Positions 13,876 through 62,500 of a stretch of DNA of 64,000 nt are shown here, piece by piece. The position numbers and the translations under genes are program-made. The stretch is from a virus (taxonomy: Duplodnaviria > Heunggongvirae > Uroviricota > Caudoviricetes), in IMG/VR virus record IMGVR_UViG_2585427754_000004; one strand, written 5' to 3'. The stretch's first letter is position 1, and each line of letters begins with the position of its first letter. A model generated the notes under the pieces. That model did no database searches. It saw only the letters and a program-made list of their open reading frames with translations, and was not told where the DNA came from.

Positions 13876-13950
13876 GATGGTGTAGCTCAGCGGTAGAGCA
13901 GTTGGCTGTTAACCAACTGGTCGGTGGTTCGAATCCACCCACCATCGCCA
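13876..13950 (+). tRNA. tRNA-Asn (anticodon GTT)
   Basis: Cloverleaf folded by hand: acceptor GATGGTG/CACCATC, anticodon loop CTGTTAA, T-arm GGTGGTTCGAATCCACC, discriminator G then CCA. Confidence 0.85.
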
Positions 13951-13955
13951 ATTTA

Positions 13956-14042
13956 GGGGAGTTAGTCCGTAGGGGCAGCGGGGTAGACTGTAAATCTACT
14001 GTCATTGCGACTCGGGTGGTTCGACTCCATCACTCCCCACCA
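13956..14042 (+). tRNA. tRNA-Tyr (anticodon GTA), type II with long variable arm
   Basis: Acceptor GGGGAGT/ACTCCCC, anticodon stem-loop GTAGA-CTGTAAA-TCTAC, T-arm GGTGGTTCGACTCCAT, CCA encoded. Confidence 0.8.
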
Positions 14043-14046
14043 AATT

Positions 14047-14122
14047 GCCGGTTTAGCTCAGTTGGTAGAGCGTCTGCCTTGTAAGCAGGATGTCAGCGGT
14101 TCGATCCCGTTAACCGGCACCA
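14047..14122 (+). tRNA. tRNA-Thr (anticodon TGT)
   Basis: Acceptor GCCGGTT/AACCGGC, D-arm GCTC ... GAGC, anticodon loop CTTGTAA, T-loop TTCGATC, CCA encoded. Confidence 0.75.
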
Positions 14123-14442
14123 ACACAACAGGTAAGAGCATTGGGCGAATCGGCGATACTGACCCACAAGCCCGTAAATCGATAGAGTCAGACCAGTGCT
14201 CTTACCGTTGTGAGGAAGTGCAGCTCTTTGAAGCAACCAGAAGATAAGCATCTGGCTTCACAACACAACGATAAGATCATTACGGTTAATCGTCGTTCAT
14301 GTGCACAATGACTGGTCGAAAGGTAGTGATCTTACCGTTGTGATGAATGCACAGGCTGATGTGCCGCAACTACAGTAGTGCGCGCTTTGCGGGGCTTGCT
14401 ACAACCCTGTGTCGGAGTTCAGCACCGACCATCACAATAGCT

Positions 14443-14529
14443 GGAGAGTAGGGAGCATGGTGCTCAAGCGGTCTTGAAAACCGTCCCATTGCGCAAGCGA
14501 TGATGGTTCGATTCCATTACTCTCCGCCA
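14443..14529 (+). tRNA. tRNA-Ser (anticodon TGA), type II
   Basis: Acceptor GGAGAGT/ACTCTCC, anticodon loop CTTGAAA, long variable arm, T-loop TTCGATT, CCA encoded. D-arm is atypical. Confidence 0.7.
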
Positions 14530-24772: not shown

Positions 24773-25042
24773 GAATTATGGCGCTTGTTGAGGAAGTCAC
24801 TCCTCTTACGCACTTTGTTTTGCCATGCCGGCAGTTAGCTTCTGCCTTTGACTATTCATGCGGCAACCCCGCATTTCGCCACAATGGGCAATTCACTTTT
24901 ATGGAATAAACTGGCCGTTGTGTCGATTTAATTAGCATGGCCTTACCATGCTAATTTATTCAACTTGTACAATCCTGCAAATCTATCCACTCAGGCTTAC
25001 ACCGTCTTCGTTATTGTAGAAATGAGGATCATCAGCGTTGAA

Positions 25043-25258
25043 TCAGCTTAGAGCAACGACATTTGCTGCTGCTGGGCCTTTAGCCCCATTCTCGATAGAG
25101 AATTCGACCTGCTGGCCTTCTTCCAAAGTGCGGAAATTATTACTCTGAATTGCCGAAAAATGTACAAAAACATCTTTACTGCCATCAGCAGGAGAAATAA
25201 AGCCAAAGCCTTTATCAGAGTTAAACCATTTTACTAAACCAGTCATTTTATTAGACAT
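25043..25258 (-). CDS. Cold-shock protein (CspA family)
   Basis: [23 protein letters not shown] ... VFVHFSAIQ is near-canonical for a cold-shock domain with RNP1/RNP2 motifs. ATG at 25258 with SD; ORF track start at 25354 is probably too far upstream. Confidence 0.85.
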
Positions 25259-25587
25259 AGATATTACCTTCTTAATTTTGTGAGCCACATAGTGCGGCGA
25301 GAATTTGATCTGTATAGATTGGGACTTACTTAGGCACTTAAGGAGGAGACTCACGAAGAAGGGAAATCAGAAGATAACACTGAACTGAGACTGCTTTACT
25401 AAAACTGCTTACATAAGGTCTGTCTTGCAAACCAACGATGCTATTAACGCATACCCCTTCTTTTCATGCAACCTTTATTTTTCAAAGATAACTAATTTTT
25501 GTCACCATTGGTTTAGTAAACGTTAACGAACCAGACGATGCCAGACACCTTTACAGAGAACAGATGCCCGCCAATTGGCGGGCATCA

Positions 25588-45758: not shown

Positions 45759-45834
45759 TCTGTCTGGTCTTGTTCTCTCAATGAATGTAAACTCACACGA
45801 TGAATAAGTAATTACTTATCTTTGTGAGGTTTTT

Positions 45835-50671: not shown

Positions 50672-51265
50672 ATGATTGCAGCCGAAAAAATCAAACAGCG
50701 AAAGCGCGACAACTCTCTTCGTGACCTCTGGAGAACACCTGACTGGCTGTTTTCTGCCATTCAACGTTATCTTGGAGTGACATTTGATGTTGACGTTGCC
50801 TGCAACAAGGACAATGCGAAGCTGCCTAATTTCATAGGCGTTGAGCGTGATGCTTTGAAATCTGAATGGGGACAGCCAGGTACAATTGCCTTCCTCAATC
50901 CACCCTACTCCAAAATCTCCCCCTGGATTGATGCGGCTATACGTGAGCAGGCTCGCGGAGTTACAACAGTGATGCTAATTCCTCAATCCCTCGATACAAA
51001 GTGGTATGAGCGTGCAACAGAGTGTGCGAATGAGACGATTATTCTGTCTGGTGGCCGCGTAGCGTTTGTCGAGCCTGACGTCAATTTGGGTCAGGTAGAA
51101 GTAAACATCAACCCCGGTGGCAGTATGCTCGTTGTTTTTCGAGGATTTTGTCAGGACGCTGGGCACTCTATAAGCAAGATCCCTTTGGATGTCATGAAAA
51201 GTCTGGGAGGGTATGATCCTGCGAATGTGATCAGGAAAAAAAGACCATCAAAGAAGGCTGCTTAG
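50672..51265 (+). CDS. Small phage-type DNA N6-adenine methyltransferase
   Basis: Motif IV NPPYS in a roughly 190-aa protein. Confidence 0.55.
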   Translation: MIAAEKIKQRKRDNSLRDLWRTPDWLFSAIQRYLGVTFDVDVACNKDNAKLPNFIGVERDALKSEWGQPGTIAFLNPPYSKISPWIDAAIREQARGVTTVMLIPQSLDTKWYERATECANETIILSGGRVAFVEPDVNLGQVEVNINPGGSMLVVFRGFCQDAGHSISKIPLDVMKSLGGYDPANVIRKKRPSKKAA

Positions 51266-51286
51266 TTTGTTCTGGCGTCTGTAATT

Positions 51287-51345
51287 AGCCTGCTTCTGTA
51301 TATATAAATAACTACATATTAATTATTAATATACGGAAGCAGGCT
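51287..51345. repeat. AT-rich palindromic element, copy 2 (also a likely terminator)
   Basis: AGCCTGCTTCTGTATATA ... TATACGGAAGCAGGCT followed by TGTTTTA; near-identical arms to the element at 6018..6075. Confidence 0.6.
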
Positions 51346-51427
51346 GTTTTATATCAGAGACTCCCAGACCTGAACACCACTACAGAATCCACTAGAACCC
51401 CTTCCCAGACGCTTTAAAATCGATTTT

Positions 51428-51682
51428 ATGAACCACTTTAAGGAAACCAACATGTCATACCCGACTAATGTCGTTGCGCTCGTAGAGAGCGATTTTCTGG
51501 CCCAGGCTCGTGAAATGATGAAAGATCGTGAGCAGGCTTTCAACTTGTACGAGTGGGCAATTAAGTGCTTACATCTTGGCGAGCATCGCGAACTTGTTGA
51601 ACAGCTTTTAGGTGAGTTGATCAATGAGGTGTTTGCCTTGAATGTTCAACTACATGGTCGAGAAAATAATCAATCACAATGA
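51428..51682 (+). CDS. Hypothetical protein
   Basis: 84-aa ORF preceded by GGAAACC. Confidence 0.3.
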   Translation: MNHFKETNMSYPTNVVALVESDFLAQAREMMKDREQAFNLYEWAIKCLHLGEHRELVEQLLGELINEVFALNVQLHGRENNQSQ

Positions 51683-52263
51683 TAGATAAGTACAAACTAT
51701 TCATAAAGTGAATTGTAAGTGCTAAGATCTGATAGTTTCCAGTCGTAGACTGGAGGCTCGACCTGATGGGTGGGGGTAAGCGTCACTGGCGTCAGGTTTA
51801 AAAAAGCTCACTACCAGCGTAGAACCGGTGCCGTATAGGTGTCGGGGAAGGGGGAACCAAAGTGAGCAGAGACAAGGGTCACTTTATGATTGTCGAGTCT
51901 GGGGTGTTTCGAGAGGTTGAATCCAGTACTCCCCTTCATAAAGTGTGGGAAGATCTCGGTTCTGGGGTGCTGTCATCCATAACTTCCCAAGTCTAAGCTG
52001 GCAGTAGACTTAGACCATAGCTTTTCAGGTTATGAAACGACCAGGTTGGTGAGGAATTTTATACTCACCTCCCTGGGAGAGTATTACCTGAAAAGACAAC
52101 CTCTCACTTCGTTCGAGGTGAACTTCACTCACTTCGTTCGTTCAGTTCAGGTTTATAAAAACCTGTTCTGGGAAGTAATTTGTTTATTTTAATAATTATT
52201 AACACGCACGCGTGTGCGCACGCGCGAGGAAAAATCGGCGCGGCGCTTGATTCAGGAGTTTAT
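51683..52263. other. 580-bp non-coding region with G-rich blocks, a 13-bp direct repeat and an alternating GC palindrome
   Basis: No convincing ORF. CTCACTTCGTTCG at 52103 and 52128; ACACGCACGCGTGTGCGCACGCGCG at 52201..52229; GTCTGGGG repeats. Confidence 0.4.
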
Positions 52264-52854
52264 ATGACGACGAAGACACCAGCCCGATCGCAAGCAAAAA
52301 CTCGCAAAAAAGACAAAAACAAAAATTCTCCCCGCACCAATCCCACAACGCCTGTCGTAGAGTTCAATCCCCAGCTCAAAACCGTGAAAATCTTTAGTGA
52401 TGGCTCTTGCCTTAAAAATCCGGGTGGCCCGGGCGGTTACGGTATCGTTCTCCAGTATCGTGGTGAGGAACGCGAGTTCTCAGATGGTTTTCATAGCACC
52501 ACCAATAACCGCATGGAGATGATGGGGGCACTTATCGGGCTGGAGCGTTTGAAATATCCATGCAACGTTATTTTGCACTCTGATAGCCAGTATCTGAAAA
52601 ACGGCATGACACAGTGGATGAAATGGTGGAAACGCAATGGATGGATGACTTCTGACAAAAAACCGGTAAAGAATGTTGATCTGTGGAAGCGTCTGGATGA
52701 GGCCGCAAGTCGACATAATGTTCGCTGGAAGTGGGTTAAAGGTCACGCCGGGCATCGTGAAAATGAAATATGTGATCGACTCGCGAAGATCGCAGCTTTT
52801 TCAGCAGCAGATATGCCTCACAAGAAAGATATTGGTTTTGTTTATAACAAATAG
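52264..52854 (+). CDS. rnhA: Ribonuclease HI
   Basis: FSDGSC ... GGPGGYG ... HSDSQY ... [18 protein letters not shown] matches RNase H catalytic motifs. Start at MTTKT; ORF track begins at 52180. Confidence 0.8.
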
Positions 52855-61735: not shown

Positions 61736-61948
61736 GCAATAGTACGATAAAGAGGCCCCATGCTCTTGATGGGGCCTGTAGCAACTAGCGTTATGGACGC
61801 TGGTTTACGTACTCAATGATCGCTTTGATAATCGCGAACATCGGCGGCACGATTTTGAACAGTAAGTTAACCATAACAGGCCTCACTTAGTTTTATCGCG
61901 CCTAGCTGCAAATACCTTTGGGATTGCCTTTGCAGTTGCAATATCTGT

Positions 61949-61968
61949 AGTCGCCAGATACTTACGGC
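61949..61968 (+). repeat. 20-bp direct repeat, copy 1 (AGTCGCCAGATACTTACGGC)
   Basis: 19/20 identical to the copy at 62122..62141, 173 bp away, in the non-coding stretch between the mobile element and the umuD-like gene. Confidence 0.6.
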
Positions 61969-62121
61969 ACGATTTCGAGTTAAGGTAAGGTTTTAGAGTC
62001 ACCAAAAACCTGGACTTAAATCTTCTTTGAGAACAACGATGTTTAGTAAATGGTCATTATTACCTGGTATGACCACTCAACGTTTCTTGATGAATCCAGT
62101 ACATTCGGTTAATCTTAATTC

Positions 62122-62141
62122 AGTCGCCAGATACTTATGGC
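62122..62141 (+). repeat. 20-bp direct repeat, copy 2 (AGTCGCCAGATACTTATGGC)
   Basis: See copy 1. Confidence 0.6.
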
Positions 62142-62174
62142 TCAGGAACAGAGCCTCAAACTCTGTTTCCCTTT

Positions 62175-62205
62175 AAAAAGCCCAGCCTAGTCAACTGGGC
62201 TTTTT
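62175..62205. terminator. Bidirectional terminator hairpin
   Basis: AAAAAGCCCAG-cctagtcaa-CTGGGCTTTTT, preceded by a second hairpin at 62145..62170. Confidence 0.6.
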
Positions 62206-62500
62206 AATGTCTATTTTTAACCCAACATACCCTCAATACTGCAACATCAGTGTCTTGCGAATTAAGATAGTGTGAATAGATTTTTCATGCAAGTGCATAA
62301 GCCTGTGGATAACTCAGGAAGGAAAAAGTGACTTCTGCGCACTTTAGACCGGACAAGGCGTTCGAAAAAGTCAATGGGAAGAAAAAATTTGTTAAAAATA
62401 ACGTTTGTTTGAATTGTATATATTTATGCCTTTCAATAGTTAGCATCTTATTAACATCTTTTTTAAGAGATAGAGTTCAAAAATATATAGCTTCAATATA

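Follow-up and report, generated by a model that had tools for sequence, protein, structure and literature searches.

A conserved, structured non-coding RNA gene of about 450 nucleotides upstream of rnhA in SSU5/pHCM2-type phage-plasmids

The analysis of a 64,000-nucleotide (nt) stretch of viral DNA (IMG/VR record IMGVR_UViG_2585427754_000004; hereafter the window, with positions counted from its first letter) allowed us to identify a large non-coding RNA gene in what sequence comparison identifies as an SSU5/pHCM2-type phage-plasmid of Escherichia coli. The gene, which we call type A, lies on the plus strand and takes up most of the gap between a small open reading frame (ORF) of 76 amino acids (aa) and rnhA, the gene for ribonuclease (RNase) HI. 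Its RNA of about 450 nt constitutes a new family, with no detectable relative among the described ones. A first-pass annotation, made from the letters of the sequence alone, had singled out this gap as an island that might hold a structured RNA gene, a second origin of replication or a regulatory hub. The first of these suggestions is borne out by a conserved promoter, strong covariation, a stable plus-strand fold and an independent transcript in published RNA-seq data.

The gap (51683-52263) extends from the stop codon of the 76-aa ORF (51682) to the ATG of RNase HI (52264), and the boundaries initially drawn for it were exact. The 1.4 kb around it are 98-99% identical to the Escherichia phages CMS-2020a, PhiR41_1 and Cyrano and 77-81% identical to Salmonella phage SSU5 and Klebsiella phage-plasmids, and plasmid NC_023916.1 of E. 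coli H89 matches the gap sequence at 100%. When the window is compared with the SSU5, Enterobacter, Citrobacter and Klebsiella elements, the core of the RNA (51758-52178) is 91-95% identical and contains invariant blocks of up to 45 nt, whereas in the same pairs the flanking genes reach 75-77% (Dam methylase), 75-79% (76-aa ORF) and 76-81% (rnhA). The RNA has thus changed more slowly than the protein genes that surround it and is under strong purifying selection. With the gap alone as query, blastn recovered 687 PLSDB plasmids at 88-92% identity over query positions 74-576, carried by Klebsiella, Escherichia, Enterobacter, Salmonella, Citrobacter, Cronobacter and other host genera. Of the 728 PLSDB plasmids that bear the neighbouring ORF, 687 have the RNA, as do 4% (232) of the 5,426 complete E. 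coli genomes, a distribution that marks it as a core gene of this phage-plasmid family.

More distant copies were reached by tblastn together with a search for homologous proteins, while the 76-aa ORF alone, run against viral contigs, returned close relatives only, and RNase H as a query for distant loci among genome contigs returned only chromosomal rnhA genes. In a Moellerella plasmid (L243) a comparable RNA was not found directly past the small ORF. A metagenome scan with the 21-mer AACCTCTCACTTCGTTCGAGG yielded 68 loci, 57 of which hold the same RNA, whereas 11, all contigs from peat or soil (L262, L263, L265, L289, L294, L299, L312-L314, L316 and L324), share the 21-mer alone, in unrelated repeat or 5'-untranslated region (UTR) contexts: AACCTCTCACTTCGTTCGAGG there adjoins repeats or, on the opposite strand, supplies an anti-sigma-like ORF with its 5' UTR and ribosome-binding site, and its presence in these environmental contigs is probably a coincidence within abundant repeats. 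Contig L254 (Logan SRR8137545) was excluded, being C-to-T throughout and most likely assembled from bisulfite-converted reads.

The RNA does not code for a conserved protein: no ORF of at least 20 codons is common across lineages within it. The 44-codon GTG ORF that is annotated as the 'hypothetical protein' CYRAN_81 in phage Cyrano is not kept in the Klebsiella, Buttiauxella, L231, L247 and L253 copies, and a small protein gene was rejected on this ground. The covariance-model scan that had been proposed as a check matched no Rfam family to the RNA. Using Rfam 15 and cmscan, the whole window gave cspA and transfer RNAs (tRNAs) only at the gathering score, and the region 51200-52400 gave only sub-threshold chance matches resembling microRNAs or small nucleolar RNAs at E <=10; the families without a match include GOLLD, ROOL, OLE, HEARO, raiA, RNAI, C4, transfer-messenger RNA (tmRNA), RNase P and 6S. 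ARAGORN found neither a tRNA nor a tmRNA in the gap. RefSeq records leave the region of the RNA blank, and literature searches on SSU5, pHCM2 and phage-plasmids turned up no account of the RNA.

A sigma-70 promoter with an extended -10 element, TGCTAAGAT at 51720-28 (TG at 51720-21, -10 hexamer at 51723-28), precedes the RNA. Its conservation is evident from an alignment of 30 non-redundant gap copies (alignment A1), the first 45 columns of which are variable except for TT.A and, 17 nt on, TG.TA..AT. Within the -35 hexamer T11 and T12 are invariant and A14 nearly so, the spacer is variable, and within the extended -10 element T31 is invariant and G32 nearly so, followed by the invariant T34, A35, A38 and T39 of the -10 hexamer. 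Even a diverged lineage (~70% identity) keeps the pattern, as TTTACC-N17-TGcTAACAT. A strict promoter scan of the window did not list the site, which has 8 of 12 hexamer matches plus the TG. The predicted RNA start lies at ~51735, 7 nt past the -10 hexamer, and the predicted 3' end at ~52175-52190, in a U-rich stretch past UUCUGGGAAGUAA.

The sequence just upstream of the -35 hexamer is a degenerate copy of an operator-like motif, found in its canonical form, TAAGTACTTACC, at the same site in SSU5 and the Klebsiella relatives, where TAAGTACTTA, the first 10 bases of the motif, forms a perfect palindrome. The window contains 9 instances of the general pattern, TAAGTA-N1-8-TWACY, where 0.67 would be expected (at 1415, 6161, 9595, 13109, 32284, 45805, 52855 and 57827, with the degenerate copy at 51687). 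The copy at 45805-45818 is the perfect palindrome TAAGTAATTACTTA, and another copy stands directly after rnhA. The motif probably serves a regulator of the phage-plasmid as an operator or promoter-associated site. The idea of a regulatory hub is therefore only weakly upheld, in that the gap holds one promoter with an operator-like motif and, apart from it, a GC-rich spacer upstream of rnhA.

To add divergence, contigs were fetched via homologues of the 76-aa ORF, and the RNA copies in five of them (L247-L249, L253 and L255) turned out to be ~70% identical; the alignment that includes such copies (A4) comprises 20 sequences and 488 columns. RNAalifold predicted 142 pairs on A1, 20 of them with compensatory double changes, and 102 pairs on A4, 37 of them with compensatory changes. 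For the structure listed in Table 1, 98.3% of the cells in A4 are paired and 37 of the 99 pairs have changed on both sides. Shuffles gave 14.6±2.6 such pairs (0 of 500 reached 37), and sliding the 3' partners by 1-3 columns gave 2-7. Several compensatory pairs each are found in P2, P3, P4, P5, P6, the inner hairpin of P7 and P9. Folding of both strands, another of the proposed checks, gave a minimum free energy of -168 kcal/mol (z = -5.9) for the plus strand and of -138 kcal/mol (z = -4.0) for the minus strand. Since there are many invariant G·U pairs, which would be A·C on the other strand, and the plus strand has the stronger fold, the strand of the RNA is plus. Compared across relatives, the RNA has a conserved secondary structure on this strand, beyond what the controls produce.

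Individual parts of the structure differ in how they have evolved. The 5'-terminal hairpin P1 is represented in relatives by at least 10 different stems, all of them hairpins of 6-11 bp that begin 5-9 nt past the -10 hexamer. In P4, helix 6 is compensatory in 7 of 9 pairs and helices 7-9 covary too, and in P5, helix 10 is compensatory in 3 of 7 pairs with 100% of cells paired, and helix 11 has one compensatory pair; the 45-nt block enclosed by P5 is invariant in the main lineages. The P7 domain has two alternative closures, either a 13-bp stem, CUUUUCAGGU.AUG/UAU.ACCUGAAAAG, with 94.8% of cells paired and zero double changes, or a local hairpin, CAUAGCUU/AGGUUAUG, with one compensatory pair. 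The 3' tail that follows P10 is invariant in A1 and contains the second copy of UUCUGGG. A closing helix between ACUUCCCA (51982-89) and UGGGAAGU (52167-74), suggested by the single-sequence minimum free energy fold, was rejected, as the local partner in P5 covaries and the 3' tail does not.

We also noted a candidate long-range pairing between the apex of P4 and positions 52097-52105, two 9-nt stretches that are perfect complements. The pairing, which competes with P8 as well as with the hairpin at the apex of P4, is kept in 97.8% of cells and has one compensatory double change, G>U / C>A, in L250. If formed, it would make the fold pseudoknotted. An all-against-all scan of stacks for further long-range pairs was noisy, many columns being invariant.

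Table 1. Features of the gap between the 76-aa ORF and rnhA and of its two borders (positions in the window).
Feature	Position	Strand	Sequence, evidence or remark
76-aa ORF, function unassigned	ATG 51452, stop 51682	+	mechanical 84-aa ORF from 51428
Operator-like motif, degenerate copy	51687-51698	+	TAAGTACAAACT; just upstream of -35; alignment A1
Sigma-70 promoter	51700-51728	+	-35 TTCATA 51700-51705, 17-nt spacer, extended -10 TGcTAAGAT
Type A non-coding RNA gene	51735-52185 (predicted 5' end; approximate 3' end)	+	covariation, fold, conservation, Cyrano RNA-seq
P1, 5'-terminal hairpin	51735-51757	+	GUUUCCAGUC-GUA-GACUGGAGGC; 4 compensatory pairs in A1
P2, 13-bp hairpin	51761-51797	+	G-rich GGGUGGGGG; 5/13 pairs changed on both sides; 99.6% of cells paired
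P3 domain	51807-51866	+	closing CUCACU/AGUGAG, inner CCGGU/GUCGG, G-rich GGGGAAGGGGGAACC; 3 + 2 compensatory pairs
Spurious 44-codon GTG ORF	51862-51996	+	CYRAN_81 'hypothetical protein' in phage Cyrano
P4 domain	51880-51945	+	stem CACUUUAUGA/UCAUAAAGUG, inner GAGU..GG/CC..ACUC, apical UUCGA/UUGAA
Long-range (pseudoknot) candidate, 5' partner	51911-51919	+	GAGAGGUUG; apex of P4
P5 with P5a	51946-51989	+	UGGGAAG/CUUCCCA, encloses invariant AUCUCGGUUCUG and P5a GGGUG/CAUCC
P6 hairpin	51991-52015	+	GUCUAAGCUG/UAGACUUAGAC; 5/10 pairs compensatory; 100% of cells paired
P7 domain	52016-52095	+	inner hairpin CCAGG..GGUGAG/CUCACC..CCUGG; 2 compensatory pairs
Long-range candidate, 3' partner	52097-52105	+	CAACCUCUC; 9-nt perfect complement of 51911-51919
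P8	52100-03 / 52115-18	+	CCUC/GAGG; holds first direct-repeat copy
First direct-repeat copy	52103-52115	+	CUCACUUCGUUCG; loop and 3' strand of P8
P9	52119-52128 / 52140-52149	+	UGAACU../..AGUUCA; 4 compensatory pairs (helix 16)
Second direct-repeat copy	52128-52140	+	inside P9; shrinks to CAUUCGUUCGG in diverged lineage
P10 and 3' tail	52148-52178 (tail 52166-52178)	+	CAGGUUU-AUAA-AAACCUG, tail UUCUGGGAAGUAA; compensatory UA>GC, A1 pairs 472:482, 473:481
A/T-rich spacer	52179-52202	+	variable sequence and length, indels; RNA 3' end probably in first U-rich part
Alternating purine-pyrimidine (CG/CA) tract	52203-52226 (24 nt)		outside RNA core, upstream of rnhA ribosome-binding site
rnhA	52264-52854	+	Shine-Dalgarno CAGGAG at 52253; Pfam RNase_H 1e-44; neighbour, outside RNA

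The repeats that had drawn attention to the gap are conserved motifs inside the RNA. The two copies of CTCACTTCGTTCG reported at a distance of 25 bp are exact and stand at 52103-52115 and 52128-52140, 25 bp start to start; the window contains no further exact copy. The sequence around the first copy, AACCUCUCACUYCGUUCGAGG, is the most conserved stretch of the RNA and is kept in the ~70%-identical copies. Because the second copy is reduced in the diverged lineage, only UUCGUUCG is kept twice there. The corresponding TTCGTTCG (UUCGUUCG in the RNA) occurs twice in the RNA against 0.01 expected, and UUCUGGG (TTCTGGG in the DNA) is found at 51960 and 52166, against 0.04 expected, with both copies kept in the diverged lineage. 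The repeats are thus present in relatives, and, as shown below, a transcript maps to the gap; the absence of both had been named as what would speak against a functional element here. As for the G-tracts, a repeated block is real, namely TCTGGGGTG, at 51897 and 51960 within TCGAGTCTGGGGTG (51893) and TCGGTTCTGGGGTG (51956), but GTCTGGGG itself occurs once. GGGG is found 7 times in the 451-nt RNA against 2.5 expected, with the G tracts located in P2, P3 and P4/P5.

The alternating tract at 52203-52226 is the sole run of its kind of at least 20 nt in the 64 kb (0.03 expected). It had been described as a palindrome just before the RNase H start; the palindrome is there, 24 nt long, but it is imperfect, its 12-nt arms being 92% complementary, and it ends 37 nt before the ATG instead of directly at it. 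The tract is found in most relatives with varying length and number of CG/CA repeats, and is partly deleted in four copies (L090, L131, L145 and L157). It can form GC hairpins followed by a run of A, which is not a terminator for plus-strand transcription. Together, the GC tract and the A-run make up a variable spacer element of their own, apart from the RNA and ahead of rnhA.

The availability of transcriptomic data for phage Cyrano (pLF82 of E. coli LF82), which is 97% identical here, allowed us to assess whether a homologue of the RNA is transcribed, as CYRAN_81 (78657-78791) lies inside Cyrano's copy of it. The data are those of dataset GSE154648, re-analysed in PMC9928086. In LB, CYRAN_81 stands 12-fold above the local prophage background (PMC9928086 Table 1), with normalised counts of 117; CYRAN_80 reaches 9.5 and the RNase H gene, CYRAN_82, 8.4 (PMC9928086 S1 Table). 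On a log2 scale of fragments per kilobase per million (fpkm), log2(fpkm+5), its values are 6.8/6.9 in LB, 9.3/9.0 in B1 and 6.9/6.9 in B6 (PMC9928086 S1 Table), and 9.0/8.2 after 1 h and 10.35/10.3 after 6 h in macrophages, while the two neighbours range over 2.6-5.8 (PMC9928086). These counts indicate a transcript in non-induced lysogens at 10-40 times the level of either flank, with a roughly 10-fold rise inside macrophages. In the literature this spurious ORF has been scored as a protein 'moron'. Another 'hypothetical protein' of Cyrano (OV696614.1), CYRAN_43, stands 723-fold above the prophage background in LB (PMC9928086 Table 1) and could be another mis-annotated small transcript of the phage-plasmid family.

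The genomic distribution of the RNA indicates that it is independent of rnhA despite the conserved synteny. In Buttiauxella p1WJP83 (L086), K. pneumoniae pKP1078-111K (L087) and Enterobacter pECL-90-1 (L090) the RNA is intact and rnhA is truncated or replaced, and in K. quasipneumoniae pKqq_SB1124_3 (L244) an RNA of a second type, type B (see below), is kept without rnhA. What follows the RNA in these plasmids is a gene on the opposite strand (L086, L244), betT (L090) or unrelated ORFs (L087). Furthermore, the diverged contig L247 retains the type A RNA with a downstream protein that is not an RNase H homologue.

Plasmids in which the small ORF is 45-51% identical, such as K. oxytoca pCAV1099-111 and K. 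pneumoniae IR12073, have the same arrangement of Dam, small ORF, a gap of 570-650 nt and RNase H. Using nhmmer, we detected no similarity between type A and the syntenic gaps of these distant plasmids, and the gap gave no Rfam match. It holds the type B RNA, undescribed like type A, which is conserved in 30 Klebsiella SSU5-like plasmids and is ~430 nt long (e.g. L241:2760-3205 and L242:2760-3206). A TAAGTA..TTTACTTA motif stands ahead of its promoter, its 5' hairpin covaries and 24 of its pairs are compensatory. Type B (pCAV1099-111, NZ_CP011594.1) is therefore like type A in its synteny, similar size, motif-preceded promoter and covarying helices, but unlike it in having no detectable sequence similarity, in its multi-branch fold with a long-range closing helix and in its clear intrinsic terminator. 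That both RNA types might reside together in one strain was considered on the assumption that pCAV1099-114 is SSU5-like too, and this assumption proved wrong.

When these loci are compared with positions 51452-52854 of the window, the RNA type in L251/L252 and in L247 is incongruent with the flanks. In L251 the identity to the window is 74% for the small ORF and 60% for the RNase H, yet the RNA is a diverged type B, whereas L247, with a small ORF merely 60% identical, carries type A. The incongruence suggests that RNA cassettes have been exchanged at a fixed locus by recombination.

Taking these observations together, we think it on balance probable that type A is a folded RNA, transcribed with sigma-70, that acts in trans, binds protein and serves the carried state of the element. 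Host RNA polymerase with sigma-70 would start at ~51735 from the extended -10 promoter and produce an RNA that begins with a protective 5' hairpin and folds into about ten helices (P1-P10), with at least one candidate long-range pairing. Transcription of the RNA takes place in the plasmid (lysogenic) state and does not depend on the genes on either side. Selection acts on the folded molecule, in which stems covary and long unpaired or loop segments, including UUCGUUCG and UUCUGGG, stay invariant; the repeated motifs might be where host- or phage-encoded proteins bind to such a scaffold. A function of this kind would belong to the core of what the phage-plasmid needs while it is carried. Action in trans and protein binding are our best guess as to how the RNA works, and both of its exact ends are predictions.

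Several observations weigh against this interpretation. No canonical intrinsic terminator was found at the 3' end, so type A may instead be a leader that is processed or attenuated. A CsrB/RsmZ-type sponge for CsrA was rejected, as GGA is not enriched in the RNA (7 against 8.3 expected) and A.GGA is absent (2.0 expected). With much of the RNA invariant, roughly half of the proposed pairs are uninformative as to covariation, and the evidence of expression consists of counts at gene level for a 135-nt ORF annotated in a single relative. A trans-acting scaffold also leaves unexplained why synteny with RNase H is conserved in two RNA types. As a candidate partner, the neighbouring 76-aa ORF is acidic, lacks a domain match and does not track the RNA type.

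A more far-reaching version of our interpretation, which we put forward only tentatively, is that one locus hosts at least two exchangeable cassettes for ornate RNAs of ~450 nt, and that the type A RNA, pseudoknotted, is a type-specific determinant of the carried state. Type specificity is also the essence of the first alternative, an analogy with the c4 RNA of P1/P7, the CI RNA of P4 and the CA RNA of N15, which are produced during lysogeny and keep an antirepressor or early operon switched off. By this analogy type A would be a control RNA of an immunity or compatibility circuit, and the RNA types would define hetero-immune or compatible lineages. We consider this unlikely, even if the two have several features in common. 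Like c4, CI and CA, type A is an RNA of a plasmid prophage, and it is expressed in the lysogenic state from a promoter with an operator-like motif ahead of it. In SSU5 and the type B plasmids, genes for antirepressors of the Ant or Rha type follow 1.7-2.5 kb downstream in a block on the same strand, sister lineages have alternative types (type B, without detectable sequence similarity, at the same locus in 30 Klebsiella plasmids), and the mismatch between type and flanks in L251 resembles cassette exchange. However, the known immunity RNAs are 70-90 nt long and act through short complementary sites, as opposed to the ~450 nt of type A, which gave no match to the Rfam C4 family. In the 64-kb window, complementary 11-mers number 16 against 13 expected and 12-mers 3 against 3, and antisense targets in the window were rejected because these k-mers are at chance level. 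Moreover, no Ant or Rha domain was detected in the downstream ORFs tested from the E. coli window.

The position of the RNA, which in both types immediately precedes rnhA on its strand, brings up the question whether it is a cis-acting structured 5' leader of the rnhA operon, mostly ended or cut before it reaches rnhA. Such a leader would account for an RNA ~14-fold above rnhA with both rising in macrophages, for the clear intrinsic terminator of type B just before rnhA, and for the GC hairpin and A-run between the RNA and the ribosome-binding site of rnhA. We nevertheless find it distinctly unlikely, as the RNA is intact where rnhA has been deleted or replaced (L086, L087, L090 and, for type B, L244), so that the two are not obligately linked, and L247 has another protein in the place of RNase H. 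In addition, the RNA is far more conserved than rnhA, and no riboswitch or leader family in Rfam matched it.

The neighbouring RNase H also recalls the RNA II of ColE1, which type A (~450 nt) resembles in length and in needing a defined fold, and by analogy type A could be a primer or R-loop RNA of a replication origin, a G-rich transcript that stays hybridised to the template downstream and is cut into a primer by the adjacent RNase H. The two have in common a structured transcript of several hundred nt from a sigma-70 promoter, runs of G (the excess of GGGG given above), an RNase HI gene directly downstream, here in two RNA types, and an A/T-rich stretch followed by a GC-rich segment and an A-run after the RNA; the locus also lies within a module for DNA metabolism. 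Against a primer, type B ends at a strong terminator before the putative origin, no RNAI (RF00106) was matched at E <=10, and the sole promoter-like site on the minus strand that touches the 5' end of the RNA (51741 to 51712) reads away from it, so that unlike ColE1/pMB1 RNA II, type A has no antisense RNA I partner that we could find. The cumulative GC skew runs through 52 kb without an inflection, conservation is lowest in the downstream spacer, part of which some copies have lost, and the RNA is abundant in non-induced lysogens of an element whose plasmid replicon, IncFIB repA, lies elsewhere. We therefore judge a primer very unlikely. The second origin suggested at the outset finds no support, for the related reasons that the gap has no iterons, the supposed ones being two-copy motifs of the RNA, that the skew does not change, and that compensatory changes pass through G·U on one strand, which indicates selection on RNA and not on DNA.

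The same signature of G·U intermediates makes it most improbable that the gap is a DNA-level element (a pac site, iterons or a protein-binding array), for which the direct repeats, the palindrome and the start or end of vB_KpnS_p4727 and of two plasmid records near the region could be cited, since there are two repeat copies only, the second is lost in the diverged lineage and start points of circular records are arbitrary, or that it encodes the small protein CYRAN_81, whose ORF, annotated in the Cyrano and PhiR41_1 relatives, is unconserved.

The closest parallels to type A may be GOLLD (RF01998) and ROOL (RF03087), two ornate and large non-coding RNAs that occur in prophages and phages and have no known function. 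Like type A, they exceed 400 nt, fold into many helices with conserved loops and covarying stems, belong to temperate phage elements, have their own promoter and are not associated with a protein that would explain them. Type A differs from both in that cmscan found no match, either at the gathering score or at E <=10, in that it is not beside tRNA genes, the tRNA cluster of the window being 37 kb away, and in its phage-plasmid hosts of the Enterobacteriaceae and its expression in lysogeny.

The type A gene is embedded in a same-strand series of genes for DNA metabolism, in the order thymidylate synthase, dihydrofolate reductase, AAA ATPase, epsilon-like exonuclease, Dam methylase, 76-aa ORF, gap and RNase HI. 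A domain search gave no match for the 76-aa product, which is acidic. The RNase HI has a lysine/arginine-rich N-terminal extension of ~38 aa (52264-52380 in the window) ahead of its RNase_H domain (residues 40-178); the RNase H proteins linked to type B have a basic N-terminal tail too, and this tail may bind nucleic acid. Between the Dam gene and the 76-aa ORF there is a long A/T-rich inverted repeat, AGCCTGCTTCTGTATATA...TATACGGAAGCAGGCT (51282-51350), for which Rfam gave only chance matches resembling microRNAs and which may be a terminator or regulatory hairpin. In the diverged Enterobacter lineage L247, the RNA is followed at a distance of ~1 kb by a gene with a weak Tad2-like match (L247:4105-4416). 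Tad2 proteins counter Thoeris, and together with the orphan methylases this gene hints that the block also carries counter-defence genes.

Elsewhere in the window, four tRNA genes are clustered at 13876-14529 on the plus strand (Asn-GTT, Tyr-GTA, Thr-TGT and Ser-TGA), and the minus strand has a full-length match to the cspA thermoregulator at 25018-25436 (RF01766, 185.7 bits), so the phage-plasmid carries a cold-shock-protein gene with a thermosensing 5' UTR. The initial description of the gap upstream of rnhA as the longest ORF-free stretch held roughly: when ORFs of at least 60 aa on both strands of the window are considered, it is the second-longest (497 nt), after 61736-62327 (592 nt). The latter has terminator-like hairpins inside and is found in the E. 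coli lineage (Cyrano, CMS-2020a) and absent from the SSU5 and Klebsiella phage records; it is therefore not a conserved element like the type A RNA.

Large structured RNAs of unknown function are rare in bacteria and phages, with about a dozen classes, and past examples of large RNAs have proved to be ribozymes, RNA-protein machines or self-assembling cages. The RNA described here resides in clinically widespread elements, which include the pHCM2-type plasmids of S. Typhi, Salmonella phage SSU5 and the PLSDB plasmids and E. coli genomes counted above. That it is the most conserved segment of its neighbourhood and is transcribed in lysogens, with a rise of about 10-fold inside macrophages, hints at its importance for the element. 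On a practical matter, annotation pipelines leave the RNA blank or call a spurious ORF, with the result that expression data have already been published under a protein label; this annotation can now be corrected and a covariance model of the family can be built.

The finding raises the questions of why a phage-plasmid needs a folded RNA of 450 nt while it is carried, and why sister lineages hold dissimilar RNAs at the same place. If the more far-reaching version of our interpretation is true, type A would represent a new class of large functional RNA, perhaps an RNA-protein machine or an RNA-only assembly, which might have a role in immunity, compatibility, copy control or counter-defence and which would be switched up inside macrophages.

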